From NCBI GenBank assembly GCA_963796055.1, contig CAWCKH010000003.1, positions 576,001-640,000 of the forward strand: a stretch of DNA of 64,000 bases, written 5' to 3'. The notes under the pieces were generated by a model. The model did no database searches, was not told where the DNA came from, and saw only the letters and a program-made list of their open reading frames with translations. The translations under genes and the position numbers were made by a program. The stretch's first letter is position 1. Each line of letters begins with the position of its first letter. This stretch comes from an uncultured delta proteobacterium. GTDB lineage: Bacteria; Myxococcota; Myxococcia; Myxococcales; Myxococcaceae. Positions 24,665-47,116 of the stretch are shown piece after piece.

Positions 24665-26632
24665 CTAGAGCCCGAAAGGGTACGTCTCGGGAAGGCCCGG
24701 CTCCAGCGGCCCTCCCCCGAGCGGCTGCAGGGCGGACGTCCGGTCGAACCAGATCCACTCGTCGAACTGGCGCGGCAGGCTGGCCCGGAAGTAGTGGCTC
24801 TGCAGCTCGGTCTCCGGGCGGTAGATGACGCCGATGGCCCGCTCCAGCCTGGGGGCGGTCAGCTCGTCGCGCAGCACCTCGCGCCTGGGATGGCGGAGCG
24901 AGAGCAGGAACCCCGGAGTCTGTGTCCGGTGGCAGAGCGCCTCGTAACTCCGGGGGTCCGCCGGACGCACCCGCTTCACCTCGTGGGGTTCACCCCAGTT
25001 GGTCGCGGCCACCACCGTGCCGTGGTCGGTCCCGAAGCCCACCAGCCGGATGTCCGGGCCGAAACGCTCGCGGCACAGCTGCCCGAGCGTGTGCTCGCCC
25101 ATGGCACCCATCTCGGTGGCGGTGGCGTCCCCCACGTGCGAGTTGTGGGCCCAGACCACCACCCGCGCCTCCGGACCGAGAAAGGCGAGGAGCGCGCCGA
25201 GCGTGTCCGCCATGTGCCGGTCGCGCAGGTTCCAGGACGCCACGTTCCCCCGGTACATCGCCCGGTAGTAGGCCTCGGCGTCCGCCACCACCCGCGCGTT
25301 CTCCGAGGCGTCGAAGAAGCGCTCACCGTCGCGCGCCTCGTAGTCGAGGCGCCGGCCCAGCAGATCCACCAGCACCTGCACCACCTCGGCCTCGCAGCTC
25401 TCGAAGCGTCCGCTGACCACTGCCCGTCCGTAGGCGGCGGGGTCCGCCTGCCAGGGGGTGAGCATCCCGTACCGCGCCCGGGCCACCGCCGCGGCCCCGC
25501 GGTCCACCTGCTCCAGGTACTGCAGCACGGCATCGGCCGAGGTGAAGAGACTGTAGAGGTCCAGCCCGTAGAACCCGGCGCGACGCTGGGGCTCCACCCG
25601 GGTGTTGTGCACCCGTAGCCACTCGGCGAAGAGCCTCACCTCCTCGTTGCGCCACATCCAGGTGGGGAAGCGCGAGAACGGCTTCCATGGCGCCGAGGAG
25701 GGCGGGAGATGGCGGACGTAGCGGTCCACCCGGGCGGCGTCGGGCCAGTCGCCCTCGACGGCCACCGCGCGGAATCCGTTCCGCTCGATCAGCGCCCGGC
25801 TGATCCTGGCGCGCATCCGGTAGAACTCATGGGTGCCATGGGTGGCCTCTCCGAGCAGCACCACCCGGGCAGAGCCGATGCGCTCCAGCAGCGCGTCGAG
25901 CTCGGCCGACTCGACGTCCTCCATCGGCTGGGCGCACTCGTGCAGGAGCGCCACCACCGCGGACTCCGAGGCGCGCGGCGTCGGAGCCCAGCCATGCTCC
26001 CCGACGAGCGGAACGAAGCGCACGTCGCCAAGCTCCTCGCGCCTGAGCACGCCGTCGCTCGTCCGCCGGATGCGGACCAGGGTCTGCTCCTCGGCGTGCC
26101 CGATCGGCATCACCAGGGCTCCGCCCGGGGCGAGCTGCTCGACGAGGGCCGGCGGGACGGACGGTCCGCCCGCGGCGACCAGGATGGCATCGTATGGGGC
26201 ATGCTCCGGCCAGCCGCGGGTGCCGTCTGCGTGGAGCACGTGCACGTTGTGGTAGCCGAGCTCCGCAAGCAGCTTCCGGGCGCCCTCGGCCAGCACCCCG
26301 TGACGCTCCACCGAGTACACCTCGGCGGCCACGCGCGAGGCCACCGCGGCCGCATACCCCGAGCCAGTGCCCACCTCGAGCACCCGCTGCCCCGGCTTCA
26401 CTCCGGCGGCCTCCGTCATCCAGGCGACGACGTAGGGCTGGGAGATGGTCTGCCCCTCGGCGATGGGGAGGGGGATGTCCTGGTAGGCGAACTCGGCCAG
26501 CCCCTCGGGGAGGAACCGGTGCCGGGGCACCTCGCCGAAGGCCCGGAGGATGTCCGCATCCGCGATGCCGCGCGCAGCGAGCGTCCGCACCAGGCGCTCG
26601 CGGATGAGATCGAAGCTGCTCACGGCCGTCAC
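24665..26632 (-). CDS. pcm: Protein-L-isoaspartate O-methyltransferase fused to an erythromycin-esterase-like domain
   Basis: GQTISQP, LEVGTGSGY, PYDAILV, VRFVPL followed by LLGEATHGTHEFY, WAHNSH, ERAIGVIY. Confidence 0.9.
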   Translation of the reverse strand: MTAVSSFDLIRERLVRTLAARGIADADILRAFGEVPRHRFLPEGLAEFAYQDIPLPIAEGQTISQPYVVAWMTEAAGVKPGQRVLEVGTGSGYAAAVASRVAAEVYSVERHGVLAEGARKLLAELGYHNVHVLHADGTRGWPEHAPYDAILVAAGGPSVPPALVEQLAPGGALVMPIGHAEEQTLVRIRRTSDGVLRREELGDVRFVPLVGEHGWAPTPRASESAVVALLHECAQPMEDVESAELDALLERIGSARVVLLGEATHGTHEFYRMRARISRALIERNGFRAVAVEGDWPDAARVDRYVRHLPPSSAPWKPFSRFPTWMWRNEEVRLFAEWLRVHNTRVEPQRRAGFYGLDLYSLFTSADAVLQYLEQVDRGAAAVARARYGMLTPWQADPAAYGRAVVSGRFESCEAEVVQVLVDLLGRRLDYEARDGERFFDASENARVVADAEAYYRAMYRGNVASWNLRDRHMADTLGALLAFLGPEARVVVWAHNSHVGDATATEMGAMGEHTLGQLCRERFGPDIRLVGFGTDHGTVVAATNWGEPHEVKRVRPADPRSYEALCHRTQTPGFLLSLRHPRREVLRDELTAPRLERAIGVIYRPETELQSHYFRASLPRQFDEWIWFDRTSALQPLGGGPLEPGLPETYPFGL

Positions 26633-28146: not shown

Positions 28147-28563
28147 TCAGCGGCCTGCCGGACCGCCGGCCGGAGCGCGCTCGCTCACCGAGGTGAGGAA
28201 CGCCACCAGCGCCCAGCGGTCGTCGGCGCTCAAGACATTGGCCCAGGCCGGCATCGCCGAGCCCGGCACTCCGTTGGTGATGGCCTGAAACGCCCGGGAC
28301 GCGCTCTCGGGCCTGCTCCAGACCGGATCGGTGAAGTTCGCCGGCTTGCGGTCCAGGCCCATGCTCCGTGCGCCGCGCCCATCGGCGTTCTCCCCGTGAC
28401 ACAGGGCACAGTCGTCCCGGTAGAGCTGCTCTCCCCTCGCCCGCACCGCCGCGGAGCGAAGCCGCTCGTACGGGACGCTGGCCGCCTTGTCGTCCTCAGC
28501 GCACCTCGACAGGCATGCCCAGGACGCGGCGCAGGCCATCGTCAGCGCCCACCAGGGTTTCAT
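28147..28563 (-). CDS. Exported monoheme cytochrome c
   Basis: CALCH plus distal Met in GSAMPAW; signal peptide; RBS GAGGA. Confidence 0.9.
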   Translation of the reverse strand: MKPWWALTMACAASWACLSRCAEDDKAASVPYERLRSAAVRARGEQLYRDDCALCHGENADGRGARSMGLDRKPANFTDPVWSRPESASRAFQAITNGVPGSAMPAWANVLSADDRWALVAFLTSVSERAPAGGPAGR

Positions 28564-29050
28564 CGTCGGTCCTCGGTCGGAGCGGATGTCCGAGCTCGGC
28601 GCAGGTCTCGATCACCCGTTCCATCAACGCTGGCACCGCCTGCGCGACCCGTGGGGTCAGCCCCAGCCCGAGCGAGACCGCCTCGGGGACCACCCCGAGC
28701 AAGGTCAGCCTGGGAGGGAGCGTTCCACGAAGCTGCGCGGCGTCCATCAGATCGCCCACACCCACCTGGTGCACACTGAGCCGGTGGGCCGCGGCCCGCG
28801 CCACCTCCTCGCCCTCGATGCGCACCAGCGTGCCCGGCTCGCCGTCGGCCCGGATCGCGTCCACCAGGAGCACGTTCCGGTACGACTCGAGCAGGGGGAG
28901 CAACCAGAGCCCGAGCGTGCCACCCTCCATCATCTTCACGCCGGGCCCCGGGCTCCAATCTTCCAGGAGCCTGGTGACCGCCACCACCCCCACCCCGTCG
29001 TCCTGACAGAGCGGGTTCCCCAGACCCAGCACCAGCAGCGGATCAAGCAC
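28496..29050 (-). CDS. hyaD: Hydrogenase maturation endopeptidase (HyaD/HybD family)
   Basis: LGLGNPLCQDDGVG, EGGTLG, VDAI, SVHQVG. Confidence 0.92.
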   Translation of the reverse strand: MLDPLLVLGLGNPLCQDDGVGVVAVTRLLEDWSPGPGVKMMEGGTLGLWLLPLLESYRNVLLVDAIRADGEPGTLVRIEGEEVARAAAHRLSVHQVGVGDLMDAAQLRGTLPPRLTLLGVVPEAVSLGLGLTPRVAQAVPALMERVIETCAELGHPLRPRTDDETLVGADDGLRRVLGMPVEVR

Positions 29051-29813
29051 GCCGCTTCCCCTGGTGCTCCCCCGCCTCGTCCGCCAGCTCCTTCTCCACG
29101 TCCGCGCGGTGCACGAACTTGTAACCGGAGAAGATCGAGTCCACCTCTCCGTTCTCCTCCAGCGCCGAGGTGAGCGCATTGGCGTAGACGTGCAGGGTGA
29201 CGAAGAGGATCAGCACCCACATCACCAAGTGGTGGATGAACCGTGCCGTCTGGAGGCCTCCGTAGATGGGGATCAGGAACTGGAAGCTCTTCATGTACGC
29301 GCCCGGGAGCGCGCTGCCTGCGTAGAGCGCCAGGCCCGAGGTGATCATCACCAGATACAGCAGGAAGACACCCGCGTAGGAGAGGCCCGCCAGCGGGTTG
29401 TGACCGATGACGTCCGGCGGCCGGGCACGAAAGAAGGAGTAGAACTTGATGGCATTGAGCAGCTCGCGCCGCCGGTGTCGCTGCCAGGGGATGAACTGGG
29501 GCCACCGCGCGTAGCGCACCGGCGAGGCGAAGAACCAGATCAGCCGCACCACCACCGCCAGGGTGAAGAAGATGGCGCTGTAGAAGTGCACCACCCGCAC
29601 CCAGCCCATCAGGAAGTGCGGGCCGGGCGTCGTGCCGGGAAAGCCGAAGGGATGGGCGATGTAGAGGCCGGTGGCGATGAGGATGGCCATCGCCAGCGCG
29701 ATGACCCAGTGCGTGTTCCGCACCACCAGGTCCCAGACGTACACCCGGATACGCGTGCCCTTGACCCCCAGACGCGGGATCTCCTCCGGCGGATGGGCGG
29801 CCATCGCTCTCAT
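29043..29813 (-). CDS. hyaC: [NiFe]-hydrogenase b-type cytochrome subunit
   Basis: YVWDLVVRNTHW, VHF, GHNPLA, IHHL..LHVY, SIFSGYK. Confidence 0.93.
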   Translation of the reverse strand: MRAMAAHPPEEIPRLGVKGTRIRVYVWDLVVRNTHWVIALAMAILIATGLYIAHPFGFPGTTPGPHFLMGWVRVVHFYSAIFFTLAVVVRLIWFFASPVRYARWPQFIPWQRHRRRELLNAIKFYSFFRARPPDVIGHNPLAGLSYAGVFLLYLVMITSGLALYAGSALPGAYMKSFQFLIPIYGGLQTARFIHHLVMWVLILFVTLHVYANALTSALEENGEVDSIFSGYKFVHRADVEKELADEAGEHQGKRRA

Positions 29814-31507
29814 GGGGTCCTCACTCGCGCCAGCTCCCTCCGTTCCACGTCCACCACGTGGACTCCGCAGGCCATGCAGGGGTCGAAGGAGTGGACGGTG
29901 CGGAGGATCTCCAGCGGCTGCTTCGGATCCGCGACCGGCGTCTTCAGCAGCGCGGCCTCGTAAGGCCCGCGCTTCTCCGCCCCGTCGCGCGGTCCGGCGT
30001 TCCAGGTGCTGGGGACGATGCACTGGTAGTTGGCGATGACCCCGTCCTTGATGTGCACCCAGTGGCCGAGCGCGCCGCGGGGCGCCTCGTGGAACCCGGC
30101 GCCGAAGGCCTCCTTCGGCCAGGACGAGGGGTCCCACTTCCCGGTGTCGTGGATCCGGAGGTCACCCTTCTCCATGTTCGCCGCCAGGCCGTCAACCCAG
30201 GTGTCGATCTTCTCGGTCAGGAGCACCGTCTCCACGCAGCGGGCGGCGATGCGCCCCAGCGTCGAGAAGAGGGCCTCCGGGCCGACGCCCAGCGACTTCA
30301 GCACCGTGCCCACCAGCTCCTGGACTCGCTTGTGGCCGGAGCCATAGGCGACCAGCATCCGGGAGAGCGGACCGACCTCCATCGGCTCGCCGCCGTAGCG
30401 GGGCGACTTCAGCCAGCTGTACTTGGCCGCCGTCTCCAGCCGCTCGTACGGAGGCTTGGGCCCGGTGTACTTGGGCCGGGTCTCGCCATCACGGGGATGA
30501 AGCGGCTGCGCGCTGTCCTCGTACCAGCTGTGCTTCACCGACTCGGTGATCTTGCTCGCGTCGAGCGGCTCGACCTTGCCCAGGTTCTTGTTGCGGATGA
30601 TGCCGGAGGGCAGGAAGAGCGTCGGCTTGTCGTCGTCACTCTCCGGGTACTCGCCGTACACCATGTAGTTGCCGACTCCGCCGCCGACCGCCGCCCAGTC
30701 CTTGTAGAAGCTGGCCACCGCGAGCACGTCCGGCAGGTAGACCTTGCTGACGAACTCCTTGGCCCTGGCGGTCAGCTCCTTCATCCGCGCAACCGACCCC
30801 ATGTTGATCGACGCCTGCTTGTCGGGATCCACCGGCGTGGCCATGCCGCCCACCAGGAACGACTGGAGGTGGGGGTTCTTGCCGCCGAGGATGGCGTGCA
30901 TCTTGATGAAGTCTCGCTGCCAGTCGAGCGCCTCGAGGTAGTGGGCCACCGCCATGAGGTTCGCCTCCGGGGGCAGCTTGTACGCGGGGTGTCCCCAGTA
31001 GGCGTTGGCGAAGGGGCCGAGCTGGCCGCGGTCCACGAAGTCCTTGAGCCGGTTCTTGATCCCGGCGAAGTACTTGGTGCTCGACAGCGGCCAGTCGGAG
31101 ATGGACTGGGTCAGTGCCGAGGTCTTCTCCGGATCCGCCTTGAGCGCCGAGACCACGTCCACCCAGTCCAGCGCGTGCAGATGGTAGAAGTGGATGACGT
31201 GGTCCTGGATGCACTGCGAGGCCATGATCAAATTTCGCAGCACCCGTGCATTGGGCGGAGGCTTGGCCCCGATCGCGTTCTCCACCGCTCGGATCGAAGC
31301 GATGGCGTGCACCGTGGTGCACACCCCGCAGATGCGCTGGGTGAACGCCCAGGCGTCGCGTGGGTCACGACCCTTGAGGATGAGCTCGATGCCGCGAAAC
31401 ATCGTGCTCGACGACCAGGCGTCTTGCACCTGGCCGCCATCGACCTCTGCCTCGATCCTGAGATGTCCCTCGATCCGGGTGACCGGATCCACCACCACGT
31501 GACTCAT
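29810..31507 (-). CDS. hyaB: Group 1 [NiFe]-hydrogenase large subunit
   Basis: DPVTRIEGH, L1 FTQRICGVCTTVH, L2 SFDPCMACGVH plus cleavable C-terminal tail. Confidence 0.97.
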   Translation of the reverse strand: MSHVVVDPVTRIEGHLRIEAEVDGGQVQDAWSSSTMFRGIELILKGRDPRDAWAFTQRICGVCTTVHAIASIRAVENAIGAKPPPNARVLRNLIMASQCIQDHVIHFYHLHALDWVDVVSALKADPEKTSALTQSISDWPLSSTKYFAGIKNRLKDFVDRGQLGPFANAYWGHPAYKLPPEANLMAVAHYLEALDWQRDFIKMHAILGGKNPHLQSFLVGGMATPVDPDKQASINMGSVARMKELTARAKEFVSKVYLPDVLAVASFYKDWAAVGGGVGNYMVYGEYPESDDDKPTLFLPSGIIRNKNLGKVEPLDASKITESVKHSWYEDSAQPLHPRDGETRPKYTGPKPPYERLETAAKYSWLKSPRYGGEPMEVGPLSRMLVAYGSGHKRVQELVGTVLKSLGVGPEALFSTLGRIAARCVETVLLTEKIDTWVDGLAANMEKGDLRIHDTGKWDPSSWPKEAFGAGFHEAPRGALGHWVHIKDGVIANYQCIVPSTWNAGPRDGAEKRGPYEAALLKTPVADPKQPLEILRTVHSFDPCMACGVHVVDVERRELARVRTP

Positions 31508-32640
31508 GACGCGCCCCCTGCCTTGCCGGCCGGGGCGTTGTCACCGGGAGGACCGGCACCGTTTTCCTTCTTCTTCCCGGCGTTCTGGATGCCCTTGATC
31601 ACGCCGTGCCCGACGTACGCCGCCGCGGTGCCCACGGTGAGCCAGGCGCCGACCGTGTCCACGCTGGACCCGGCGCCGAATCCGGCCACGGCGGGCAGGT
31701 GCTTGTAGAACGGCGTCATCTTGTCCCAGAAGTCCGGCTCGGCGCAGCCGATGCACGGGTGGCCGCAGCCGATGGGCCAGTTGGTGCCCTCGTTCCAGCG
31801 GACGGTGGGGCAGTTCTGGTAGGTCACCGGCCCCTTGCAGCCCATCTTGTAGAGACAGGCCCCCGAGCGGTGCGCGTCGTCTCCCCAGAGCTCCACGTAC
31901 TGCCCGGCGTCGAAGTGCGCCCGGCGCTCGCAGTTGTCGTGGATGGTCTTGCCGTAGGCGAACAGCGGCCGGCGGAAGCCGTCGAGCGGCGGCCAGCGCT
32001 TGTAGGTCAGGTAGTAGGTGAGGAGCGCCGTCAGGTTCGCGGCGTTCATCGGGCAGGCCGAGAGGTTGATCAGGTTCTTCACCCCGGGGACCGCGTCGGC
32101 GACCCCCAGCGCGCCGGTGGGGTTCGGTGACGCGGCCGGGAGCCCGCCGTAGGTGGCGCAGGTCCCGGCGGCGATGGTGGCCGCCGCCTTGCCGCAGACC
32201 TCCCGGGCGATGTCCAGCGCCGAGCGCCCGCCGATGGTGCAGTACGCGCCGTCCGCGCCGGTGGGGATGCTCCCCTCCACCACCGCGATGAACTGACCGG
32301 CGTTGTCCTTCACCACGCCCTTCAGCGCCTCCTCGGCCTGGAAACCCGCCGCGGCCATGATCGTCTCGTGGTAGTCCACGCTGAGGAGGTCGAGGACGAT
32401 CTCCGCCACCGTCGGCGCGCTCGAGCGCAGGAACGACTCGGTGTTGCCGGCACAATCCTGGAACTCGAGCCACACCAGGATGGGCTTCTTGGCCTTGGTG
32501 AGCGCGTTGGCGATCTGCGTCGCCGCGGAGGCAGGTAGACCGAACGTGCCCGCGACCCCGGCGCAGAACAAGAGCAACTCCCGGCGACTGACTCCGCGGC
32601 GCCGGAGCTCTCGGGCCAGCCAGCCTTCGCGACTCCTCAT
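31504..32640 (-). CDS. hyaA: Group 1 [NiFe]-hydrogenase small subunit (Tat-exported, C-terminal anchor)
   Basis: RBS GGAGG; SRRELL Tat-like signal; QDCAGNTES, GTCATYGG, HDNCERR, CLYKMGCKGP, GHPCIGC. Confidence 0.95.
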   Translation of the reverse strand: MRSREGWLARELRRRGVSRRELLLFCAGVAGTFGLPASAATQIANALTKAKKPILVWLEFQDCAGNTESFLRSSAPTVAEIVLDLLSVDYHETIMAAAGFQAEEALKGVVKDNAGQFIAVVEGSIPTGADGAYCTIGGRSALDIAREVCGKAAATIAAGTCATYGGLPAASPNPTGALGVADAVPGVKNLINLSACPMNAANLTALLTYYLTYKRWPPLDGFRRPLFAYGKTIHDNCERRAHFDAGQYVELWGDDAHRSGACLYKMGCKGPVTYQNCPTVRWNEGTNWPIGCGHPCIGCAEPDFWDKMTPFYKHLPAVAGFGAGSSVDTVGAWLTVGTAAAYVGHGVIKGIQNAGKKKENGAGPPGDNAPAGKAGGAS

Positions 32641-32710
32641 GACAACCTCCGTCTCGGGCGTACGGCCAGCGCTCATCTCGAAGGCTCGACGCCGCGGCGC
32701 CCGGGGGGCG

Positions 32711-32726
32711 TGCAAGAGGCAAGCCT
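32711..32726 (-). promoter_or_regulatory. Candidate sigma54 -24/-12 promoter for hydrogenase structural genes
   Basis: Minus strand AGGCTTGCCTCTTGCA = GG-N10-GC with TTGCA, about 70 nt before the ATG. Confidence 0.5.
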
Positions 32727-33019
32727 CGGCGGCCTCCGAGTACAGACGCCCGGCAGCGGGGCAGGACCTGCGTAGGTCTTCCGGAGTGGACGCAACCCTT
32801 GCGTTCCGAACGATGCGCCCGTGCCGGACCTTCCCATCAGTTCCGATGATGTCGCGCCGCGCCGGTCCCGCGCGCACCGACGGACCGGTCCAGGGACCGC
32901 TTCGGTTGGCGTACGATGCCGCGCTCGTGCGCCGTCCCCGTGACGTGGGTGTCCGCTCGACGCCGAGCAGGAACCTCTCCGGACCGAGACCCGTCGCCGT
33001 TGCCGGGCGGGGCGCGCGG

Positions 33020-33865
33020 TCACTCCGCTCCGGGAAAGCGCGGAGGCCGCCGGGCGAAGAAGGCGTCGATGCCCTCGGTGAACTCCGGCGAGTCCGCGCT
33101 CCGGATGAGCGCCTCCAGCTCCCGGTCGAGGTGCACGTCCAGCCGGTCCACTCCCAGGGCGTCGTTGAACAGCTGCTTGGCGGCGGCGAACGCTCCGGCG
33201 GGACCCGCAGCGACGCGCCGGGCCACGACCTCCACCTCGGTGTCGAACGCCGCGACGGGAAAGACGCCGTTCACCAGCCCCGCGCTCCTGGCCGCTGCCG
33301 CATCGAGCCGCGGGTTCAAGAGCACCATCTCTGCGGCGAAGCGCAGCCCCACCAGCCGGGGGACGAAGAAGGTCGAGCTCTCCGCGCCGCTCAGGCCGGT
33401 CTTGGCGTAGGCCCACTCGAAGGTGGCCCGCTCGGAGGCGAGGACCAGGTCGCAGGACATGGCCAACCCGAGCCCTCCCGCCGCGCAGGCGCCGTCCACC
33501 GCGGCGATGAACGGCTTCGGCGCGCGGCGGATCTCCGAGATGGTGGAGTGGAGGTACTCGAGGATCTGCTTGAAGATCTCCCCCGGGCCGAGCGGGACGG
33601 CCCGCGCGCCAGGCGTCAGGTAGGCCAGCTCGGCCGGGTCGCCGCCGGCGCGGATGTACTTGAGGTCCGCCCCGCTGCAGAAGATGCCGGGCGCCCCGCG
33701 CAGCACCACCACCCGGACCGCGGGGTCCCGCGCCAGCTGGAGGCCGGCCTTCCGGAGGTCACGCGCGGTCGAGACGTCGAGCGAGTTGAAGCGCTGCGGC
33801 CGGTCGATGGTGAGGGTTCCGACGCCACGGTCGACGGCGGTCCGGATGTGAGTCGGCGCGGCCAC
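33020..33865 (-). CDS. Crotonase-fold (enoyl-CoA hydratase/isomerase family) protein, last gene of the hyp operon
   Basis: FCSGADL, PKPFIAAVDGACAAGG, PRLVG, AFFARRPPRF; starts 6 nt after the hypE stop. Confidence 0.9.
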   Translation of the reverse strand: MAAPTHIRTAVDRGVGTLTIDRPQRFNSLDVSTARDLRKAGLQLARDPAVRVVVLRGAPGIFCSGADLKYIRAGGDPAELAYLTPGARAVPLGPGEIFKQILEYLHSTISEIRRAPKPFIAAVDGACAAGGLGLAMSCDLVLASERATFEWAYAKTGLSGAESSTFFVPRLVGLRFAAEMVLLNPRLDAAAARSAGLVNGVFPVAAFDTEVEVVARRVAAGPAGAFAAAKQLFNDALGVDRLDVHLDRELEALIRSADSPEFTEGIDAFFARRPPRFPGAE

Positions 33866-33871
33866 GGGCCC

Positions 33872-34906
33872 TCAGCAGATCCGCGGCATCGGCTCGCCCT
33901 CGGGCTCGGCGAGGAGCCGCCGTCCGAGGCCGGTGTCGAGCACGATGCGCCCCTTCTGCTCGGCGATGCAGGTGCCCACCACCGCGGCGCGCCGGCCCAG
34001 GGGGTGCCGGTCCAGGGCGGCCATCACCCGGTCCAGCGCCTCGGGGCGAACGCCGATCACCGCCTTGCCCTCGTTGGCCACGTGCAGCGGGTCGATGCCG
34101 AGGATCTCCGAGGCGGCGCGCACCTCGTCGGAGAGCGGCACCGCCTGCTCCTCGAGGAGGATGCCCACCCCGCTCTTCTCCGCCATCTCGTGGAGGGCGC
34201 TGGAGAGCCCTCCGCGCGTCGGGTCCTTCATCGCCACCACGCCGTCGCCGGCGGCCCGGAGCACCTCCCGGACCAGCCCGTTGAGCGGGGCGACATCGGA
34301 TTTCAGATTCCCCTGGAGCTCCAGCTTCTGCCGCGCGGCCAGCACCGCGAAGCCATGGTCCCCCATGGTGCCGGTCACCACGATGCGGTCTCCGGGGCGG
34401 AGCCCGTTGTCGCGCACCAGCCGGTCGGTGAGGGCCACGCCGGTGGTGTTGAGGACCAGGCCGTCCAGCTCGCCCCGGCCCATCACCTTGGTGTCGCCGG
34501 TGACGACCGGCGCCCCGGCCTCGCGGGAGGTGTCCCGCATCGAGGCATGGATGCGCTCCAGCTCGGCGATGGGAAAGCCGTCCTCGATCACCACCGCGCA
34601 GGTGAGCCCCAGGACCTCGGTGGCCCCCATCATCGACAGGTCGTTCACCGTTCCAGAGATGGACAGCCGTCCCACGTCCCCGCCGGGGAAGAAGCGCGGG
34701 GCGACGATGTGCGAGTCGGTGGTGAGCACCAGCCAGCCGTCCTTGAGCGGGAAGGCGGCGCCGTCGTCCATCTCCGCCAGGCCCACCGAGCCGGGAGGCT
34801 GCTCGGCCCCCTCGGCGAACAGCTGCTCGATGAGCGCGCGCATCGCCCGGCCGCCGGCGCCGTGCTTGAGGCTCACCGTCGTCCCCAGCGGAAGGGTCGG
34901 TCTCAC
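33872..34906 (-). CDS. hypE: Hydrogenase maturation protein HypE
   Basis: HGAGG, TTDSH, GTVNDL, GDTKV, DPTRGG, ANEGK, C-terminal PRIC. Confidence 0.96.
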   Translation of the reverse strand: MRPTLPLGTTVSLKHGAGGRAMRALIEQLFAEGAEQPPGSVGLAEMDDGAAFPLKDGWLVLTTDSHIVAPRFFPGGDVGRLSISGTVNDLSMMGATEVLGLTCAVVIEDGFPIAELERIHASMRDTSREAGAPVVTGDTKVMGRGELDGLVLNTTGVALTDRLVRDNGLRPGDRIVVTGTMGDHGFAVLAARQKLELQGNLKSDVAPLNGLVREVLRAAGDGVVAMKDPTRGGLSSALHEMAEKSGVGILLEEQAVPLSDEVRAASEILGIDPLHVANEGKAVIGVRPEALDRVMAALDRHPLGRRAAVVGTCIAEQKGRIVLDTGLGRRLLAEPEGEPMPRIC

Positions 34907-36057
34907 GGCGCGCCTCCCACGGCCACCTGGCGGAGCTGCGGATGTCCGCCGTACTGGTGCCAGATGCGGCAGGTGCCCTCGCTGGACACCATGCAGGCGC
35001 CCACCGGCGTCTCCGGCTGGCACTCCTTGCCGAACAGCGGGCAGGCGGTGGGCGACTGCAGGCCGGACATGATCTCGCCGCAGATGCAGCGCTGGACCAG
35101 CGCCGGCGGGGCGAAGTCCCACAGCGCCTTGACGTCGATCTCGAAGCGGCGCCTGGCGTCGAGGTGCGCCCAGGAATCTTGAAGCCGGAGGTTGCCGTTG
35201 GGCACGTGGGCGATGCCCCGCCAGCGCCCGCCCAGGGGACGGAACACCTTCCACAGCTGCTCCTGCGCCGCGACGTTCCCCTCCCGCGTCACGCAGCGGG
35301 GGTAGAGGTTCTCCACCGTCGGGGTGCCGTCGCGGATCAGCTCCACCAGCCGCAGCAGGCCGGCGAGGATGTCCAGCGGCTCGAACCCCGCCACCACCAC
35401 CGGCAGCCGGTGCCGCTCGACGAACGGCTCGAACACCCCGGACCCGGTGATGGTCGCTGCGTGACCCGCGGCGAGGAACCCCTCCACCCGGCTGCCGGGC
35501 ATCTCGGCGACGATCTCCATCACCGGCGGGATGTACTTGTGGGCCGAGAGGACCGAAAAGTTCCTCGGTGGCCCGCGGAGGATCTCCGCCGCGGTGGCCA
35601 CGGCGGTGGTCTCGAACCCGGTGGCGAAGAACACCACCTCCTCCTCGGTCTGCCGGGCGAGCTCCACCGCCTGCGAGACCCCGTAGACGATGTCCACCTT
35701 CGCCCCGGCCGCCCGGGCATCGGCCAGCGAGCCCGCCGAGCCGGGCACCCGGAGCATGTCCCCGTAGGTGGCCACCCGCACGCCCTGGCGCGCCAGGGCC
35801 ACCCCCTCGTCCACCTCGGGCACGTCGGTGATGCACACCGGGCACCCGGGGCCCATGATCACGTCCAGCGCGGGCGGGAACGCCGCGCGCAGACCGAACC
35901 GGGCGATGGCCTGCTCGTGGCTGCCGCACACGTGCATCACCGAGACCGGCTCGCGGCCGATCTCCCGGGTCACCTTCTCGATGGCGGCCCCGAGCGCCCG
36001 GGCGGCCATGGGGTCGCGGAACTTGAGCTGGGCGGCGTCGGCGGCCGGGGTGCTCAC
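34903..36057 (-). CDS. hypD: Hydrogenase maturation protein HypD
   Basis: VCGSHE, GPGCPVC, GFETT, PVGACMVSSEGTC. Confidence 0.96.
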   Translation of the reverse strand: MSTPAADAAQLKFRDPMAARALGAAIEKVTREIGREPVSVMHVCGSHEQAIARFGLRAAFPPALDVIMGPGCPVCITDVPEVDEGVALARQGVRVATYGDMLRVPGSAGSLADARAAGAKVDIVYGVSQAVELARQTEEEVVFFATGFETTAVATAAEILRGPPRNFSVLSAHKYIPPVMEIVAEMPGSRVEGFLAAGHAATITGSGVFEPFVERHRLPVVVAGFEPLDILAGLLRLVELIRDGTPTVENLYPRCVTREGNVAAQEQLWKVFRPLGGRWRGIAHVPNGNLRLQDSWAHLDARRRFEIDVKALWDFAPPALVQRCICGEIMSGLQSPTACPLFGKECQPETPVGACMVSSEGTCRIWHQYGGHPQLRQVAVGGAP

Positions 36058-36341
36058 GGCTTGCTCCGGTGGGCCGCGTCCAGCTCACCCCGGACGTCGG
36101 CGGCCATGAGGTCGCCGGGAGCCTCCTTCGCCAGGAGCTCGGAGTAGAGGGCCAGGGTGTCCTCGGCCTCGCTGGCCGGGATGCGGCGGATGGCGAACCC
36201 CACGTGGTTCAGCACGTAGTCGCCGGGAGCCACTGGCGCGTCCACCACGTCGAGCCGGACCTGCTTCCGCAGGCCCCAGAAGTCCACCGTGGCGACGAGC
36301 CCATCGACCTCCACCACCCGACCTGGCACTCCGAGGCACAT
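36054..36341 (-). CDS. hypC: Hydrogenase chaperone HypC
   Basis: MCLGVP, GDYVLNHVGFAI. Confidence 0.95.
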   Translation of the reverse strand: MCLGVPGRVVEVDGLVATVDFWGLRKQVRLDVVDAPVAPGDYVLNHVGFAIRRIPASEAEDTLALYSELLAKEAPGDLMAADVRGELDAAHRSKP

Positions 36342-36353
36342 TGACGTCTCCTG

Positions 36354-38624
36354 TCATCCGCGGGTGGTCGCGTCGGCCACCATCACCTGGCCCAGCGCGA
36401 TGCCACCGTCTCCCGGCGGGACCTGCCGGTGCAGGTACACCGCGCAGTCCGGGTCCAGCGCTGCCTTCAGGCCCTCCGCGAGCCGGGCGTTCTGGAAGCA
36501 GCCCCCGGTCAGGACGACGGGGAAATCGCCCGCGCGGTCGCGCACCAGCCCGACCAGGGTCGCGGTGGCGTGCACCAGCGTGTCGTGGAACTTCGCCGCC
36601 AGCCGCGCGGCGGGCACGCCCCCCAGGTGCTCCTCGATGAGCGCCCGCACCATCGCCCGGAAATCGAGCTCCAGCACCGACCCGCGGGTGTCGATCCCGA
36701 ACGGGTACCGTCCGTGCCCCCCGGCGTCGGCCGCCAGGTTCCAGGCCAGCGCGACCTCGCCCTCGTAGCGTGCTCTGCCCTTTCCCAGGACCAGCGCTCC
36801 GAGCCCGTCGAACAGCCGTCCCATCCCGTGCGCCTTCGGCGCGTTGATGCCCAGGGTCAGCGCCTGGCGCACCAGCACCACGGCGTCCTCCGGGATGGCG
36901 GGAAAGTTCCACAGGCCGGGTGGGTCGCCGTCGTAGGCGTCGAGCAGGAGCGCCAGCCCGATGCGCCAGGGCTCGTGGATGGCGCGCTCACCGCCGGCCA
37001 GCGCGACCGGGCGCAAGGTCGCGCAGCGCTGGAAGGCGGTCGCCGAGGCGACCAGGATCTCCCCGCCCCAGGCGGTCCCGTCGGTGCCGTAGCCCGTCCC
37101 GTCGAACGCCACCCCGATGACCGGCCCGTCCAGGCGGTGCTCGGCCAGGGCACTGGCCACGTGCGCGTGGTGGTGCTGCACCGCGACCTTCACCGGCTCG
37201 GGCCGGTCCAGCGCGTACCGGGTGGAGGCGTAGTCGGGGTGCAGGTCGTAGGCGATGACCTCCGGCCGGCAGCCGAGGAAGCGCTGCATCCGGTCGATCG
37301 ACTCCTCGTAGGAGCGGTGGACCTCCAGCTGGTCCAGGTCACCCACGTGGGGACCCAGCACCGCCACGTCCCCGGCGGCGAGGCAGAACGTGTTCTTCAG
37401 CTGCGCGCCGCACGCCAGCACCGGCCGGGCCACCGGGCGGGCAAGCGGGATGGGCCGGGGCACGTACCCCCGCGAGCGCCGGAGCAGCACCGGTGCACCC
37501 GCCACCACCCGGGTGACCGAATCGTCGCAGCGGGTGACGATCGGCCGATCGTGGGTGAGGAAGAGGTCGGCGACGTCCCGGAGGCGGTTCAGCGCCTCGG
37601 GCTCCTCGAAGACGATGGGTTCGTCGGAGAGGTTGCCGGAGGTCATCACCAGCGGCCGCTCCACCTCGGCGAGCAGCAGATGGTGCAGCGGCGTGTAGGG
37701 CAGCATCAGGCCGAGGAGCGGGTTGTCGGGCGCGATCTCGGGCGCCACTGGCCGCCCCGAGCTCTTGCGCGCGACGAGCACGATGGGCCGCTCCACCGTC
37801 TCCAGTAACTTCGCCTCGGCCTGGGAGAAGCTGGCCAGCTTCCGGGCCTCGCGGAGGTCGCGCACCATCACCGCGAACGGCTTGGCATCGCGCCGCTTCC
37901 GCTCCCGGAGCAGCTGCACCGCCTCGGACGAGGTGGCGTCCACCGCCAGGTGGTATCCGCCGAGCCCCTTCACCGCGACCACGTTCCCCGCCCGGAGCGC
38001 CGAGGCGACCTCGCGGATCGGATCCGCCGAGGTCAGGTCCCTCCCCCTCGAGTCGAGCAGCCGCAGCCGCGGGCCGCAGCGCGGACAGGCGTTGGGCTGG
38101 GCATGGAACCGCCGGTCCCTGGGATCGTCGTACTCGCGCTGGCAGGCCTCGCACATCACGAAGGCCGCCATCGAGGTGACCCGGCGGTCGTACGGCGCGT
38201 CCCGGGCGATGGTGAAGCGCGGGCCGCAGTCGGTGCAGTTGGTGAACGGGTAGCGGTACCGCCGGTTGGAGGAATCGAAGATCTCCGCCACGCACGCCGG
38301 GCAGGTCGCCAGATCCGCGGGGATCGACACCCGGCGCCCGGTCCCCGGGAGGCTGGGGGCGATGACGAATCCCTCCGTCGGCCGGGGAGGAATCTCCTTC
38401 CACTGGAGCGAGCGGATCTCCGCCGCCGGCGGAGGGTCCGACTGCAGCGCCCGCACTAGGCCGTCGAGTGCCGAGGGCTCGCCGAATGCCTCCACCGTCA
38501 CCCCGCCCACGTCGTTGCGGACCTGCCCGGCGATCCCCAGCTGGGTGGCGATCCGGTACACCCACGGACGGAAGCCCACCCCCTGGACCGTGCCTACCAC
38601 CTCGATGCGTCTGCCCTGCTGCAT
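36354..38624 (-). CDS. hypF: Carbamoyltransferase HypF
   Basis: GTVQGVGFRP, zinc fingers CPAC/CTDC/CEAC/CPRC, QHHHAH, PPGDGGIALGQ; RBS GGAGG. Confidence 0.97.
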   Translation of the reverse strand: MQQGRRIEVVGTVQGVGFRPWVYRIATQLGIAGQVRNDVGGVTVEAFGEPSALDGLVRALQSDPPPAAEIRSLQWKEIPPRPTEGFVIAPSLPGTGRRVSIPADLATCPACVAEIFDSSNRRYRYPFTNCTDCGPRFTIARDAPYDRRVTSMAAFVMCEACQREYDDPRDRRFHAQPNACPRCGPRLRLLDSRGRDLTSADPIREVASALRAGNVVAVKGLGGYHLAVDATSSEAVQLLRERKRRDAKPFAVMVRDLREARKLASFSQAEAKLLETVERPIVLVARKSSGRPVAPEIAPDNPLLGLMLPYTPLHHLLLAEVERPLVMTSGNLSDEPIVFEEPEALNRLRDVADLFLTHDRPIVTRCDDSVTRVVAGAPVLLRRSRGYVPRPIPLARPVARPVLACGAQLKNTFCLAAGDVAVLGPHVGDLDQLEVHRSYEESIDRMQRFLGCRPEVIAYDLHPDYASTRYALDRPEPVKVAVQHHHAHVASALAEHRLDGPVIGVAFDGTGYGTDGTAWGGEILVASATAFQRCATLRPVALAGGERAIHEPWRIGLALLLDAYDGDPPGLWNFPAIPEDAVVLVRQALTLGINAPKAHGMGRLFDGLGALVLGKGRARYEGEVALAWNLAADAGGHGRYPFGIDTRGSVLELDFRAMVRALIEEHLGGVPAARLAAKFHDTLVHATATLVGLVRDRAGDFPVVLTGGCFQNARLAEGLKAALDPDCAVYLHRQVPPGDGGIALGQVMVADATTRG

Positions 38625-38713
38625 GGCGGGCGGACCTCCGACTCCGAGCCGACGGTTCCGCTTCAGCAAGGGTCGAGCCACCGGCCCTCCCCGAGTCGAC
38701 GGCGTCTGGCAGG

Positions 38714-42829: not shown

Positions 42830-43855
42830 TCAGCCGGAGAGGATCCGACCGACGAGCCAGTAGCCGCCGAGCCCGGCGACGGCCACCGAGGCCCAGCGCA
42901 CCCCTGCCGGCCACATGCCGCCGACACCGCGCAGCCATCGCAGGACCGGCCAGGCGAGCGCGACGATGACCAGCTGCCCGATCTCGACCCCGAGGTTGAA
43001 GGTCAGCAGGCTCGGGGCGAGCAGGGAGCGCGGAAGCTCGAGGGCGCGCAGGGCGCCGGCGAATCCGAAGCCGTGCACCAGACCGAACCCGAAGGTGAGT
43101 CGCCACCGGTGAGCGATTGCAGACCTCACCCGCTCGCCCGACAGGGGGGCCCTGAGTGCGAGGAGGTTTTCCACCGCCACCGCGACGATGCTCAGGGCGA
43201 TCAGCGGCTCGACGAGCCGGGGCGGGGGCACGACCCATCCCAGGGTGGCCAGGGCCAGGGTCAGCGAGTGGGCGACGGTGAAGGCAGTGACGATGGCCAG
43301 CAGCTGCCGGAAGGTGCCTCCCAGCAGCAGCACCCCGATCAGGAACGCGATGTGGTCCGCCCCCTGGAAGATGTGCTCGGCACCGAGGCGGAGAAATCTC
43401 GCGGCGCCCGCCCAGGCTCCCGGCTGCGCTTCGACCTCGAGCACCGGCGCGCTCGCCCGCGCGGTCCGTTGCACGGTGCCCCCGGGGAGCCGGAGCAGCG
43501 CGACGTGCAGGTGGCCCTCGGGAAGCCGATCCAGGAACCCGAGCACCATCCGCAGCCGGCCGGGCGCACGGGGACACTCCCAGCGGGCGGTCACCGCCAC
43601 TCCATCGTCCTGGACCGGGGCGGCAGAGGAGGTGGCGAGCGTGCACGCGGCTCCGTCCACCGAGACCTGCACCGTGGCCGCGACGTCCTCGGGCCGGAGC
43701 ACGTCGAGCTCCACCCGGGCGAACTGGAGCGTCGCCTGCACTCGCCTCCCCTCGACCGTGACGTCACCGGTGGACAGGCGCAGCGCGTGGGCCCGGACGG
43801 CTCCGGGGACGAGCGCGCAGAGGGCGAGCAGGGCGAGGAGGCGCGGGCGGGGCAT
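42830..43855 (-). CDS. HupE/UreJ-family membrane protein with periplasmic N-domain
   Basis: Signal peptide ending AH; LGAEHIFQGADHIAF, TAFTVAHSLTL, VEPLIALSI, FGLVHGFGFA, FNLGVEIGQ. Confidence 0.9.
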   Translation of the reverse strand: MPRPRLLALLALCALVPGAVRAHALRLSTGDVTVEGRRVQATLQFARVELDVLRPEDVAATVQVSVDGAACTLATSSAAPVQDDGVAVTARWECPRAPGRLRMVLGFLDRLPEGHLHVALLRLPGGTVQRTARASAPVLEVEAQPGAWAGAARFLRLGAEHIFQGADHIAFLIGVLLLGGTFRQLLAIVTAFTVAHSLTLALATLGWVVPPPRLVEPLIALSIVAVAVENLLALRAPLSGERVRSAIAHRWRLTFGFGLVHGFGFAGALRALELPRSLLAPSLLTFNLGVEIGQLVIVALAWPVLRWLRGVGGMWPAGVRWASVAVAGLGGYWLVGRILSG

Positions 43856-43955
43856 CGGCTGGGCGCCACCCTAACGAGGGCAGACCGGTGCCCGCGCAGC
43901 GAATTTCACTTGAATCCGATTGCCGCCCGCGTCCGTACTTCGTCCGGTCCAGCCC

Positions 43956-44336
43956 ATGCGCCCTGCCCGACGCACCCCGGAGCAGCGAAGGAGCGAAGCC
44001 GCTCCGCTCGCGCTGGTGCTCGCCGGCTGGGCGCTGGCGGTGGCGCCCGTCGCCCACCCGCTGCTCGGGCACGGCACGCCGTTCCTCCATGACTCGGCCG
44101 ACGAGGGGTGGGTCCACCATGGGGACGGTCGCGGCGGTGACGGCGGGCCGGCGGTTCCGGCCGGGCACCACCACGCCCCCGGAGCCCCCGAGCACCTCCA
44201 GCTCCCGCTGCTGGCAGCCGCGCCGCCGCCCGTCTTCCAGACGGTTGTGCTCGCCGTACGGCCGCCGCCGCCGCGCGCGGAGCGCCCTCTCTCCCTCCCC
44301 CGCCGGTGGTCGCAGGAGCAGCCGCAGGCGCCGTGA
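43956..44336 (+). CDS. Small His/Pro-rich membrane-anchored protein upstream of TonB receptor (putative leader)
   Basis: Hydrophobic segment LALVLAGWALAVAPVAH, His clusters (VHHG, GHHHAPGAPEH), Pro-rich tail ending QPQAP; start uncertain. Confidence 0.7.
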   Translation: MRPARRTPEQRRSEAAPLALVLAGWALAVAPVAHPLLGHGTPFLHDSADEGWVHHGDGRGGDGGPAVPAGHHHAPGAPEHLQLPLLAAAPPPVFQTVVLAVRPPPPRAERPLSLPRRWSQEQPQAP

Positions 44337-44339
44337 GCC

Positions 44340-44357
44340 GCACGGGAGCTCCCGTGC
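44340..44357. promoter_or_regulatory. Perfect 18-bp palindrome GCACGGGAGCTCCCGTGC directly after the leader ORF stop
   Basis: Self-complementary; contains CTCCC, complementary to the receptor RBS GGGAG (44395-44399). Confidence 0.6.
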
Positions 44358-44401
44358 CGCCCGTCGTCCGCTGACCGTTCCCGAACCCCCCAGGGGGAGT
44401 G

Positions 44402-46594
44402 ATGCCCCGATCCGTCCGGACGGGCCAGGTGCTCGTCCTGTTGCTCGCGGGTGCGACCGCACGCGCCCAGCCCGCCACCGCTCCGCCGAGCGGGCCGTCG
44501 GAGACCACGGTGGCCCAGCTGACCCCCGATGCTCCCTCGGTGGACGCGAATGGGTCGCCGTACCAGACGACGGTCGAGGCCCGGGCCCCGACCTCCGCGG
44601 CCTCGGCGGAGACCATCCGCGACCGGGACCTCCGGCTTCGACCCTACGCGACCCCGGAGGACATCCTCCGCGTCGTGCCCGGCCTGGTCACCGCCCAGCA
44701 TCAGGGCGGGGGAAAGGCCGACCAGCTGTTCCTCCGCGGATTCGACGCAGACCACGGAACGGACGTCGCCCTCTCCCTCGACGGCATCCCCGTCAACCTT
44801 CCCTCGCACGGCCACGGCCAGGGCTACGCCGACCTGAACTTCCTCATCCCCGAGGTCGTCGACCGCGTGGAGGTGCTCAAGGGTCCCTACTTCGTCGAGT
44901 TCGGCGACTTCGCCACCGCCGGCGCGGTGAACCTCCGCACCCGTCGCAGCTTCGCCGAGAGCTCCGTCCAGGCGTCGTACGGATCGTTCCAGAGCTGGCG
45001 CGTCCTGGGCGTGGGGAGCACCGGGGCCACCGCGAACCCCACCTGGCTCGCCGCGGAGGTGTCGGGCACGCAGGGCCCGTTCCTCGTCGGCGAGGACCTG
45101 CGCCGGTACGCCCTCTTCCTCAAGTCGACCCTGCAGCTCTCGTCGAGCACCACCCTCGGCATCCTCGCCAGCGCGTACGGATCGCAGTGGCGTGCGAGCG
45201 GCCAGATTCCCGAACGGCTGCTGACCGTCTCCCAGTTCAACCCCGTTGCCCTGGACCCCTTCGGCTCGATCGACCCCAGCGAGGGCGGCCAGACCCAGCG
45301 GCAGATGATCGCGCTCACCGTCGAGAGCCACCCGTCGGACCGGAACGAGATCGCCCTCACCGCCTACGCGGTCCGTTACCGGCTCACGCTCTTCAGCGAC
45401 TTCACCTTCCAGCTCCACGACGAAACCAACTTCGACGAGATCGAGCAGACCGACGCGCGCCTCTACACCGGGCTGAACGCGATCTACCGGCGCCGCATCG
45501 AGCTCGGTGACGTCCGGATGGTCACCACGATCGGCGCCCAGGCCCGGCTGGACTCGACGACGGTGGGACTCTGGCACGTGAAGGAACGCGTCCGGCTCCC
45601 GACCTGCGCACCGGTGGTGCCGGGCGCCCCGCTCAATCCCTGTGCGCTCGACGACGTCGTCCAGTCCGACCTCGCCGCCTTCTTCCAGGAGGACGTGCGG
45701 TTCACGCCATGGCTGCGGGTGGTGCTCGGGGTGCGTGGAGACCTGTTCGAATGGAACGTCACCAACAACGGCCCGAACCCGAGCCCCGCCGAGAACCACG
45801 GCACGGGAGTCGTCCAGCGCGGCATCGTCAATCCCAAGCTGCAGACGGTCATCACTCCCCTCACCGGCTGGGACCTGTACCTCGACGCCGGAGGTGGCTT
45901 TCACAGCAACGACGCGCGGGCAGTGGTGGCGCAGAACGGCTCGGGGGCGCTTCCCCGTGCGTGGGGCGGCGAGGTGGGCACCCGCCTGTCGCTTCTCGAC
46001 CGGAGGCTCGACCTCGCCGCAGCGCTCTGGGCCATCCACCTCCAGTCCGAGCTGGTCTTCGTCGCCGACGAGGGGACCACCGAGGCGTCGGACCCCACCG
46101 ACCGCTATGGCCTCGACCTCGAAGCCCGCTTCCGCATCCTCGCCTGGATGTGGGCCGATCTCGACCTCACGCTCGCGCACGCCGCGTACACCCAGGACCA
46201 CGGCAACGCCCGGGCGGTGGCGCTGGCACCGACCTTCACCGCCCAGGCCGGCCTCAGCGTCGTCCACCCCGCGGGCATCCGTGGGCGGCTCGGCGCGCGC
46301 TGGGTCGGGAGCCGCCCGGCCACCGAGGACCCGAATGGCCTGCAGGCGCAAGGGTACTTCATCGTGGACCTCACGCTCGCCTACCGCTGGCGCTTCCTCG
46401 AGGTTGGCCTGGCCATCGAGAACGTGCTGAACACCGCCTGGCGCGAGGCCCAGTTCGCCAACAACTCGTACGTGGCTGGGCGAGACCCGGACCTCCGCGA
46501 TCCGGTCACCGGTGCACGGATCGGCCAGTTCGGCATCCACTTCGCGCCGGGGAACCCGATCAACGTCCGGGGCACGGTCGCGGTCTACTTCTGA
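44402..46594 (+). CDS. TonB-dependent outer-membrane receptor, probably for a metal
   Basis: Plug QHQGGGKADQLFLRGFDADHGTD...HGHGQGYADLN, KGPY, GFHSNDAR, C-terminal Phe (VAVYF). Confidence 0.93.
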   Translation: MPRSVRTGQVLVLLLAGATARAQPATAPPSGPSETTVAQLTPDAPSVDANGSPYQTTVEARAPTSAASAETIRDRDLRLRPYATPEDILRVVPGLVTAQHQGGGKADQLFLRGFDADHGTDVALSLDGIPVNLPSHGHGQGYADLNFLIPEVVDRVEVLKGPYFVEFGDFATAGAVNLRTRRSFAESSVQASYGSFQSWRVLGVGSTGATANPTWLAAEVSGTQGPFLVGEDLRRYALFLKSTLQLSSSTTLGILASAYGSQWRASGQIPERLLTVSQFNPVALDPFGSIDPSEGGQTQRQMIALTVESHPSDRNEIALTAYAVRYRLTLFSDFTFQLHDETNFDEIEQTDARLYTGLNAIYRRRIELGDVRMVTTIGAQARLDSTTVGLWHVKERVRLPTCAPVVPGAPLNPCALDDVVQSDLAAFFQEDVRFTPWLRVVLGVRGDLFEWNVTNNGPNPSPAENHGTGVVQRGIVNPKLQTVITPLTGWDLYLDAGGGFHSNDARAVVAQNGSGALPRAWGGEVGTRLSLLDRRLDLAAALWAIHLQSELVFVADEGTTEASDPTDRYGLDLEARFRILAWMWADLDLTLAHAAYTQDHGNARAVALAPTFTAQAGLSVVHPAGIRGRLGARWVGSRPATEDPNGLQAQGYFIVDLTLAYRWRFLEVGLAIENVLNTAWREAQFANNSYVAGRDPDLRDPVTGARIGQFGIHFAPGNPINVRGTVAVYF

Positions 46595-47016
46595 TCCCCC
46601 GGGGGTTTTCGCTCGCGCAGCCGTCGCTCGCGCGCGGTGACCGCGGCAGCCGTCTCGCTCTGACCCTCGCTCCGGAGCTTCTTGAACTCGTCCTGGAAAT
46701 CCTTCAGCTCGTCCTCCGAGGCGTCCTCGAGCGCGGCGAAGGTGTTCCGCGCCTCGCGGGTGCTGCGGATGAGCTCGTCGAGCTTGAGGTGGAGCGCGGT
46801 GGCGTCGCGGTTCTGGGTGGCCTGGATGAGGAACACCATCAGGAAGGTCACCACCGTCGTCCCGGTGTTGATGACCAGCTGCCACGAGTCGCTGAAGTGG
46901 AACAGCGGGCCGGTCACCGCCCAGGCCACGACCACCAGCAGCGCCAGCGTGAAGGCGAGCGGCGTCCCCATCGCTCGGGACGCGCTGTTGGCGAAACGAC
47001 GGAAACCGTCCTCCAT
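46585..47016 (-). CDS. Low-affinity iron permease (Fet4-like) family protein
   Basis: WAVTGP.F.FSDSWQLVINTGTTVVTFLMVFLIQATQNRD..ALHLKLDELI. Confidence 0.9.
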   Translation of the reverse strand: MEDGFRRFANSASRAMGTPLAFTLALLVVVAWAVTGPLFHFSDSWQLVINTGTTVVTFLMVFLIQATQNRDATALHLKLDELIRSTREARNTFAALEDASEDELKDFQDEFKKLRSEGQSETAAAVTARERRLRERKPPGDQK

Positions 47017-47116
47017 CCACCCAGAAGGTAGGCACCGGTGCCGGCCCGCGGGAGCGCCCTTCCCTTCGGGAATGGGCTTGACCGGGGCGGCCGTGGCGAG
47101 AACGCTCGCGCCGCCC

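Follow-up and report, generated by a model that had tools for sequence, protein, structure and literature searches.

The hydrogenase maturation operon of an uncultured member of Myxococcaceae carries, directly behind hypE, the gene of a stand-alone crotonase that is very probably a dedicated maturation factor of [NiFe]-hydrogenase. We consider it reasonably probable that this protein is a free-standing analogue, not an orthologue, of the half of HypX that releases CO, and with similar, moderate confidence we propose that it decarbonylates formyl-CoA to CO. The hydrogenase's CO ligand probably comes from this crotonase.

HypX (HoxX) is the N10-formyl-tetrahydrofolate-dependent synthase of the CO ligand. 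To our knowledge, the origin of this ligand in [NiFe]-hydrogenases is settled solely for the organisms that have HypX. The excerpted passages of a 2025 review name only HypX, treat the CO source and the enzyme of the other organisms as open questions and speculate on free formyl-CoA (PMC12134894). In the openly readable full texts searched, no stand-alone or split HypX-like crotonase was described, and within these full texts the present crotonase family is undescribed.

Results

Gene order around the crotonase

The window, which means the whole stretch of 64,000 nucleotides analysed here, has a G+C content of 67-75%. On its minus strand the genes run in the order hypF-hypC-hypD-hypE-crotonase-small subunit-large subunit-cytochrome b-maturation protease. 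hypF (36354..38681) was recognized by its Acylphosphatase, zf-HYPF, Sua5 and HypF_C domains, hypC (36054..36341) by PF01455 (85.8 bits), hypD (34903..36057) by PF01924 (414.9 bits) and hypE (33872..34906) by TIGR02124 (371.8 bits vs a cut-off of 251.6) together with AIRS and AIRS_C domains. The crotonase, our candidate CO-releasing enzyme, is encoded by an open reading frame of 281 amino acids with a GTG start (33020..33865). Since the stop codon of hypE is at 33872-33874 and the start codon of the crotonase at 33863-33865, the two genes are separated by 6 nt. Further along the same strand are the small subunit of the [NiFe]-hydrogenase (longest ORF 31504..32877; TIGR00391, 402 bits), the large subunit of the group 1 membrane-bound type (29810..31507; PF00374, 786 bits), whose closest solved chain is 3MYR_B (718 bits), the b-type cytochrome subunit (29043..29798; PF01292, 106.7 bits) and a maturation endopeptidase (longest ORF 28496..29179; PF01750, 88.3 bits). 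The initial annotation, made from the letters alone, had put the crotonase start 6 nt past hypE and the gene between hypFCDE and the hydrogenase genes, and both statements are borne out, the former by the codon positions and the latter by the profile matches. The closest relatives of the crotonase are labelled Myxococcaceae.

The small subunit deserves a comment of its own. About 90 residues of its longest ORF precede a Tat-type motif (RRGVSRRELL), and over the part from residue 91 onwards the protein shares 45% identity with C. necator HoxK. Translation probably starts some 200 nt inside the ORF, close to the Tat motif; a later start would leave an untranslated stretch, a few hundred bases long, 3' of the crotonase (32878-33019 plus the 5' part of the ORF), which may hold a separate promoter for the hydrogenase structural genes. 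At 32431-32472 (minus strand) the small subunit reads D-C-A-G-N-T-E-S where C. necator HoxK has C-T-C-C, so that Asn replaces the last of these HoxK cysteines and the protein lacks the additional Cys of O2-tolerant enzymes. Of the 19 small subunits detected at related loci (L009-L023, L041, L067 and L071), 17 likewise have G-N, often as D-C-C-G-N. We take the cysteines of the HoxK C-T-C-C to be ligands of the proximal Fe-S cluster, and if this is right, the proximal cluster of the window's hydrogenase may be unusual.

Other genes on the minus strand of the window include a 655-aa ORF (24665-26632) that combines a protein-L-isoaspartate O-methyltransferase domain with a domain of the erythromycin-esterase family, and a 1159-aa ORF (43871-47350) that matched no Pfam or NCBIfam model. 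The latter lies upstream of an ABC/MacB/HlyD efflux set and adjoins a HupE/UreJ-type gene (42830-43855), which, going by the family name, is presumably a putative nickel transporter.

Domain, fold and active-site residues

The protein belongs to the ECH_1 superfamily (151 bits vs a Pfam cut-off of 27), and the Pfam scan detected crotonase domains only, with no fused N-terminal formyltransferase domain. No NCBIfam model reached its cut-off; the top one was 'oxepin-CoA hydrolase, alternative type' (165 bits vs 300). An AF2 model built from an alignment of 117 rows has a mean pLDDT of 96.2 and replaced an earlier model from a shallow family alignment of 11 rows, in which the pLDDT was 66.8 and fell below 50 in the active-site loop. 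The model shows the crotonase spiral fold, with 4LK5 as the top solved match (Z 35.5, rmsd 1.5 Å over 246 residues).

The motifs GGLGLAM, WAYAK, GLSGA and AYAKTGLSGAESSTFFVPRLVG are all found in the translation. The last of them, the active-site loop, comprises residues 152-173 with Tyr153 and Glu162; it was correctly noticed from the start, at about 33350-33412, and its exact span is 33347-33412 (minus strand). The residues of this catalytic loop, including Tyr153 and Glu162, are invariant in the family alignments, as are the motifs F-C-S-G-A-D and A-A-G-G. The two catalytic glutamates of rat crotonase, Glu144 and Glu164, presumably correspond to Gly133 and Tyr153 of the window protein. On this assumed mapping the protein lacks both hydratase glutamates, as had been claimed, and does not have the two catalytic Glu of a canonical enoyl-CoA hydratase (EC 4.2.1.17).

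Residues 82-96 (about 33578-33622, minus strand) form a highly conserved insertion of about 15 residues that is specific for the family in comparison with generic crotonases. Its consensus is Y-L-T-P-x-A-R-x-V-P-x-G-x-G-E, followed by an invariant FKQILEY-x-H motif. The confidence of the AF2 model has its minimum here (block mean 71). The insertion might act as a lid or provide a surface for docking.

Probable origin from PaaG-like crotonases

The nearest sequence relatives of the family are PaaG-type and generic crotonases with about 40% identity (hhalign E 4e-83), and the best PDB and NCBIfam sequence matches of the crotonase are generic hydratases and PaaG. It does not pass as PaaG itself, as TIGR02280 gave 143 bits against a cut-off of 345 and Ala161 stands at the Asp of the PaaG motif G-L-x-P-D. 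We surveyed the active-site positions in the 116 nearest representative crotonases, 10 of which are family members. Position 161, just before Glu162, is Asp in 100 of them, in agreement with the initial statement that the PaaG-type Asp is lost in the window protein. The position of Tyr153 is occupied by Tyr in 85 and by Phe in 28, while Glu at position 162 is confined to the 10 family members. Initially, the Tyr had been emphasized along with the Glu as part of a HypX-like motif; the Glu is distinctive indeed, but the Tyr is common among the neighbours, so the likeness of the motif to HypX rests on one distinctive residue, Glu162. The family-specific change is P-D-G to G-A-E, by which the PaaG-type Asp was lost and a Glu was gained at the place of the HypX Glu.

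In a tree built with five generic crotonases as the outgroup, the family is one clade, and a long branch with 100% SH-aLRT support separates it from the generic crotonases. A search of 1.84 billion cluster representatives gave a few family members and, directly after them, ordinary crotonases of about 40% identity.

Relation to HypX

HoxX of C. necator pHG1 served as the HypX reference. BLASTP aligned the window crotonase to this protein's C-terminal domain at 28% identity over 202 amino acids (E 5e-9). In this alignment and in hhalign, Tyr153 falls on Tyr439 and Glu162 on Glu449 of HypX, and when the family was compared with six HypX sequences by hhalign, the register was the same, at a probability of 98.3%. 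The Tyr/Glu alignment first proposed by eye therefore holds in both programs. BLASTP left a gap of one residue between the aligned Tyr and Glu, the loop of the window protein being one residue shorter than that of HypX. According to the excerpted part of a study of HypX (Muraki 2019; PMC6802093), R. eutropha is HypX-negative when Tyr439 or Glu449 is mutated, and these residues correspond to Tyr416 and Glu426 of Aquifex HypX, which are located next to the CoA thiol.

The superposition of a model on Aquifex HypX, proposed in the initial annotation, succeeds at the level of the fold, with the whole C-domain aligned at Z about 31. The AF2 model matched residues 227-550 of the Aquifex HypX chains with Z 30.5-31.0 and an rmsd of 2.2-3.2 Å over 252-260 residues. 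These chains rank 12-20 of 1000 in the structure comparison, level with many crotonases, the best of which reached Z 35.5. No HypX chain was among the first 49 rows of a Foldseek search with the crotonase model.

With regard to the sequence, neither hhalign nor the HypX scores indicated a kinship to the C-domain of HypX beyond that of any crotonase. The hhalign score against HypX was 108.6 for the family and 103.4 for generic crotonases, and in the window genome the bit score of HypX was 22.8 for the crotonase, next to 22.5 and 20.1 for two further ones. The earlier reading of the protein as half of a canonical HypX is thus abandoned, given these scores and the E value of 4e-83 between the family and generic crotonases. 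As for the other half, the N-domain of HypX has its best matches in the Fmt and ArnA models, whereas the formyltransferase that accompanies some relatives of the crotonase (see below) is PurN/PurU-like. The parity of HypX scores together with this type of partner points to an analogue that combines the two folds of HypX but draws on other lineages of them, rather than to a split hypX. On these comparisons we read the family as a crotonase lineage in its own right, descended from PaaG-like enzymes, and not as a fragment of canonical HypX.

A family in hyp operons of several phyla

A scan with one genome per species gave 438 stretches that encode a relative of the family, and the best 80 of them were studied in detail. 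The phylum and class labels of these 80 loci are Myxococcota, Acidobacteriota, Gemmatimonadota, Rokubacteria/Methylomirabilota, Binatota, Planctomycetota, Betaproteobacteria and others. Identity within the family was 69-100% among the 120 relatives listed. By tblastn with the window proteins, 79 of the best 80 loci have hypE as the immediate upstream gene, in the same orientation, and the remaining one starts at a contig end; usually hypF-hypC-hypD precede hypE. It is evident that the crotonase is a regular member of hyp operons and not a chance neighbour, which answers affirmatively the initial question whether its homologues are hyp-linked. The family is almost confined to maturation operons of [NiFe]-hydrogenases.

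Where no gene intervenes (57 loci), the median distance from hypE to the crotonase is 26 nt. Downstream sequence of 1300 bp or more was available at 73 loci; hypA follows directly in 48 of these and hypB in 40. Within the window's genus, the structural genes of the hydrogenase stand downstream of the crotonase in place of hypA/hypB. Cross-phylum identity in the same loci is 64-71% for the crotonase, comparable to the 62-76% of HypE and the 71-85% of HypD. None of the 80 extracted crotonase ORFs contains a stop codon, and the crotonases of Myxococcaceae are 75-95% identical with short branches in the tree. The source annotations call the relatives '2-(1,2-epoxy-1,2-dihydrophenyl)acetyl-CoA isomerase' (PaaG, JGI) or enoyl-CoA hydratase.

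A record labelled as the archaeon Nitrosotalea sp. (L026) contains a bacterial-type hyp and hydrogenase cluster. Its crotonase is near-identical to that of L042, a short contig of a Myxococcaceae MAG from which L015 also derives, and it clusters with Rokubacteria rows. L026 and L042 are probably misbinned contigs.

Distribution of full-length HypX

The HypX query from C. necator did not find a full HypX in the window genome, which is 98.5% complete. Neither was full HypX found in 50 other genomes that carry the family, where the best match had 57 bits and all matches were to single domains. The query was sensitive enough, as it recovered full HypX in five of 301 Myxococcota genomes with 587-628 bits. 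These five genes (L096-L100, in genomes G283, G190, G340, G310 and G272) are 55-57% identical to C. necator HoxX, and each starts right after hypE. They belong to other genera of the window's own family and have hypX in the slot that the crotonase has here. hypX is also directly 3' of hypE on C. necator pHG1.

Among 121 Myxococcota genomes with hypE, 19 have the crotonase, five have HypX and none has both. The initial annotation had raised the question of mutual exclusion: no co-occurrence was found, but the sample is too small, as only about 0.8 genomes with both genes are expected by chance and the zero overlap is not statistically meaningful. The distribution is consistent with replacement of one gene by the other.

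A partner formyltransferase in some relatives

In 22 of the best 80 loci, a formyltransferase gene of 210-250 amino acids is located between hypE and the crotonase. All seven partner genes scanned matched Formyl_trans_N (52.9-74.1 bits). The nearest NCBIfam models are PurN/PurU, with scores of 63-68 bits where PurN requires 150, and of the partner's residues H123 and D162 are invariant and N121 nearly so. At L067 the stop codon of the formyltransferase overlaps the start codon of the crotonase (ATGA). The domain make-up of the formyltransferase-crotonase pair is the same as that of HypX. A complex prediction for the two L067 proteins with two alignments had scores of 0.01 and 0.00, which count neither way on binding.

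Of the 50 genomes with the family, 14 gave more than 265 bits with the partner profile, each time at the hyp locus, and the other 36 gave at most 94 bits. This formyltransferase orthologue was thus found solely beside the crotonase in the 50 genomes, which ties the family to formyl chemistry. On the other hand, its presence on the crotonase tree requires at least 11 changes, at least four of which are forced by well-supported branches, and such repeated gain or loss may signify that the crotonase is independent of formyl-tetrahydrofolate chemistry. The two earliest-branching Gemmatimonadota rows carry the partner, suggesting an old pair that repeatedly lost its formyltransferase, if the uncertain root is placed correctly. 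In one Thermoanaerobaculia genome, an IS481-type transposase (rve + HTH; L050:6205-7476) is situated between hypE and the crotonase. This locus has no formyltransferase, while its sister locus L059 retains it.

We also looked at seven longer relatives as possible fusions of formyltransferase and crotonase. Two of them contained both domains, but they were rejected as frameshift or gene-call artefacts because of long out-of-frame stretches, and family representatives of odd length were likewise taken as such artefacts.

Formyl-CoA supply in the window genome

The Pfam scan agrees with the initial observation that no formyltransferase domain is encoded in the window. The genome has three Formyl_trans_N matches, all on another contig, and the dedicated partner was not found in it, the best profile match being one of these Formyl_trans_N genes with 57 bits. 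The organism thus has the crotonase without the partner, and its formyl-CoA would have to come from another source. Oxalyl-CoA decarboxylase or a CoA-transferase had been suggested as such a source, a proposal that gained no backing from the genome: it contains no equivalog of frc (266 bits vs a cut-off of 504) or oxc (300 bits vs 739). One ThDP enzyme and two CoA-transferases of family III are present.

Discussion

From the observed gene order and residue alignment we infer the substrate, the release of CO, its delivery to HypCD and the link to oxygen. In the proposed mechanism, formyl-CoA would be bound with its thioester carbonyl in the oxyanion hole of the crotonase fold. Glu162, aided by Tyr153, would abstract the formyl proton, and CO and CoA would depart. 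The iron on HypCD would then take up the CO to give Fe(CN)2CO with oxygen present. In relatives with a translationally coupled PurN-like formyltransferase, about one quarter of those sampled, formyl-CoA would be made from N10-formyl-tetrahydrofolate; in the window organism it would come from a source other than a dedicated formyltransferase.

A bolder version of this proposal, which we put forward tentatively and regard as somewhat doubtful, is that the family represents a second, independently evolved synthase of the CO ligand. The PaaG-like Asp would have given way to a Glu one position along, converging on the active site of HypX, and the product would be a self-sufficient formyl-CoA decarbonylase without dedicated formyltransferase. 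If true, free formyl-CoA or another small acyl-CoA would, in many soil bacteria, be a physiological precursor of this CO ligand, and the formyltransferase would be an optional booster that was repeatedly lost.

The annotations of the relatives as PaaG isomerase, and generic hydratases and PaaG as the best PDB and NCBIfam sequence matches, might suggest an ordinary metabolic enoyl-CoA hydratase/isomerase that merely adjoins the hyp genes. This is very improbable, since such an enzyme would hardly have Ala161 at the PaaG Asp and Gly133 and Tyr153 at the presumed hydratase Glu positions, score 143 bits against the 345 of the PaaG model, adjoin hypE in 79 of the best 80 loci across several phyla and be split from five generic crotonases by a long branch with full SH-aLRT support. 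A maturation factor with other chemistry is a weightier alternative, though still an unlikely one: the protein may act on another CoA thioester, or be a CoA-binding adaptor or chaperone for HypCD, and its Tyr/Glu likeness to HypX would then be a coincidence. Such a coincidence is easier to accept for a PaaG-derived family (E 4e-83) that is no closer to HypX than PaaG-like crotonases are and that inherited its Tyr153 from that clade; moreover, 58 of the 80 loci and 36 of the 50 genomes have no dedicated formyltransferase, and the window genome is without an evident source of formyl-CoA. It is harder to reconcile with a formyltransferase orthologue that occurs solely beside the crotonase (14 of 50 genomes above 265 bits, the rest at 94 or below), with the crotonase occupying the slot of HypX in related genera, and with the exact match of Glu162 to the HypX Glu at which mutants lose function according to the account cited above.

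The crotonase may also be a relic in the window organism, functionless after loss of the partner, with CO provided by a HypX-independent route. The partner was indeed not found in the window genome, and L050 with its transposase, next to the partner-bearing sister L059, illustrates a recent loss. We regard a relic as improbable, because the members without formyltransferase are intact and highly conserved (80 of 80 ORFs free of stop codons), the residues of the catalytic loop are all invariant, the members from Myxococcaceae are 75-95% identical on short branches, and the formyltransferase-free members keep the tight spacing to hypE. A dedicated crotonase that releases CO from formyl-CoA remains our preferred reading.

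The family is present in hyp operons of many uncultured soil lineages and is a candidate, both small and separable, for the step that releases CO. With some relatives having the formyltransferase and others lacking it, nature has set up a test of whether cofactor assembly can draw on free formyl-CoA. Heterologous production of oxygen-tolerant hydrogenases could also benefit from the crotonase family.

Comparison with known systems

HypX/HoxX of C. necator pHG1, R. leguminosarum and Aquifex aeolicus (e.g. 6J0P) is the known system most relevant to our proposal. It shares with the window protein a CoA-binding domain of the crotonase fold, the Tyr/Glu pair in register with Tyr439/Glu449 and the gene position directly 3' of hypE, and in 22 of 80 relatives a separate formyltransferase gene provides the other half. 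On the other hand, the window protein has no fused N-terminal domain and its active-site loop is one residue shorter, and the partner of the relatives is a separate single-domain protein of the PurN/PurU type in contrast to the Fmt/ArnA-like N-domain of HypX. PurN/PurU share Formyl_trans_N and the catalytic N-x-H and Asp residues with the partner gene of the related loci, but the latter scores below the PurN cut-off and is located solely between hypE and the crotonase. Finally, the PaaG-type crotonases (4FZW_C, 3HRX, 6SLA) and an unnamed 'enoyl-CoA hydratase-related' clade have the A-Y motif and the Gly-rich motifs of the oxyanion hole in common with the family, whereas the family differs in the replacement of the Asp of P-D-G (G-A-E), in the extra stretch of about 15 residues at 82-96 and in its context of hyp rather than paa genes.
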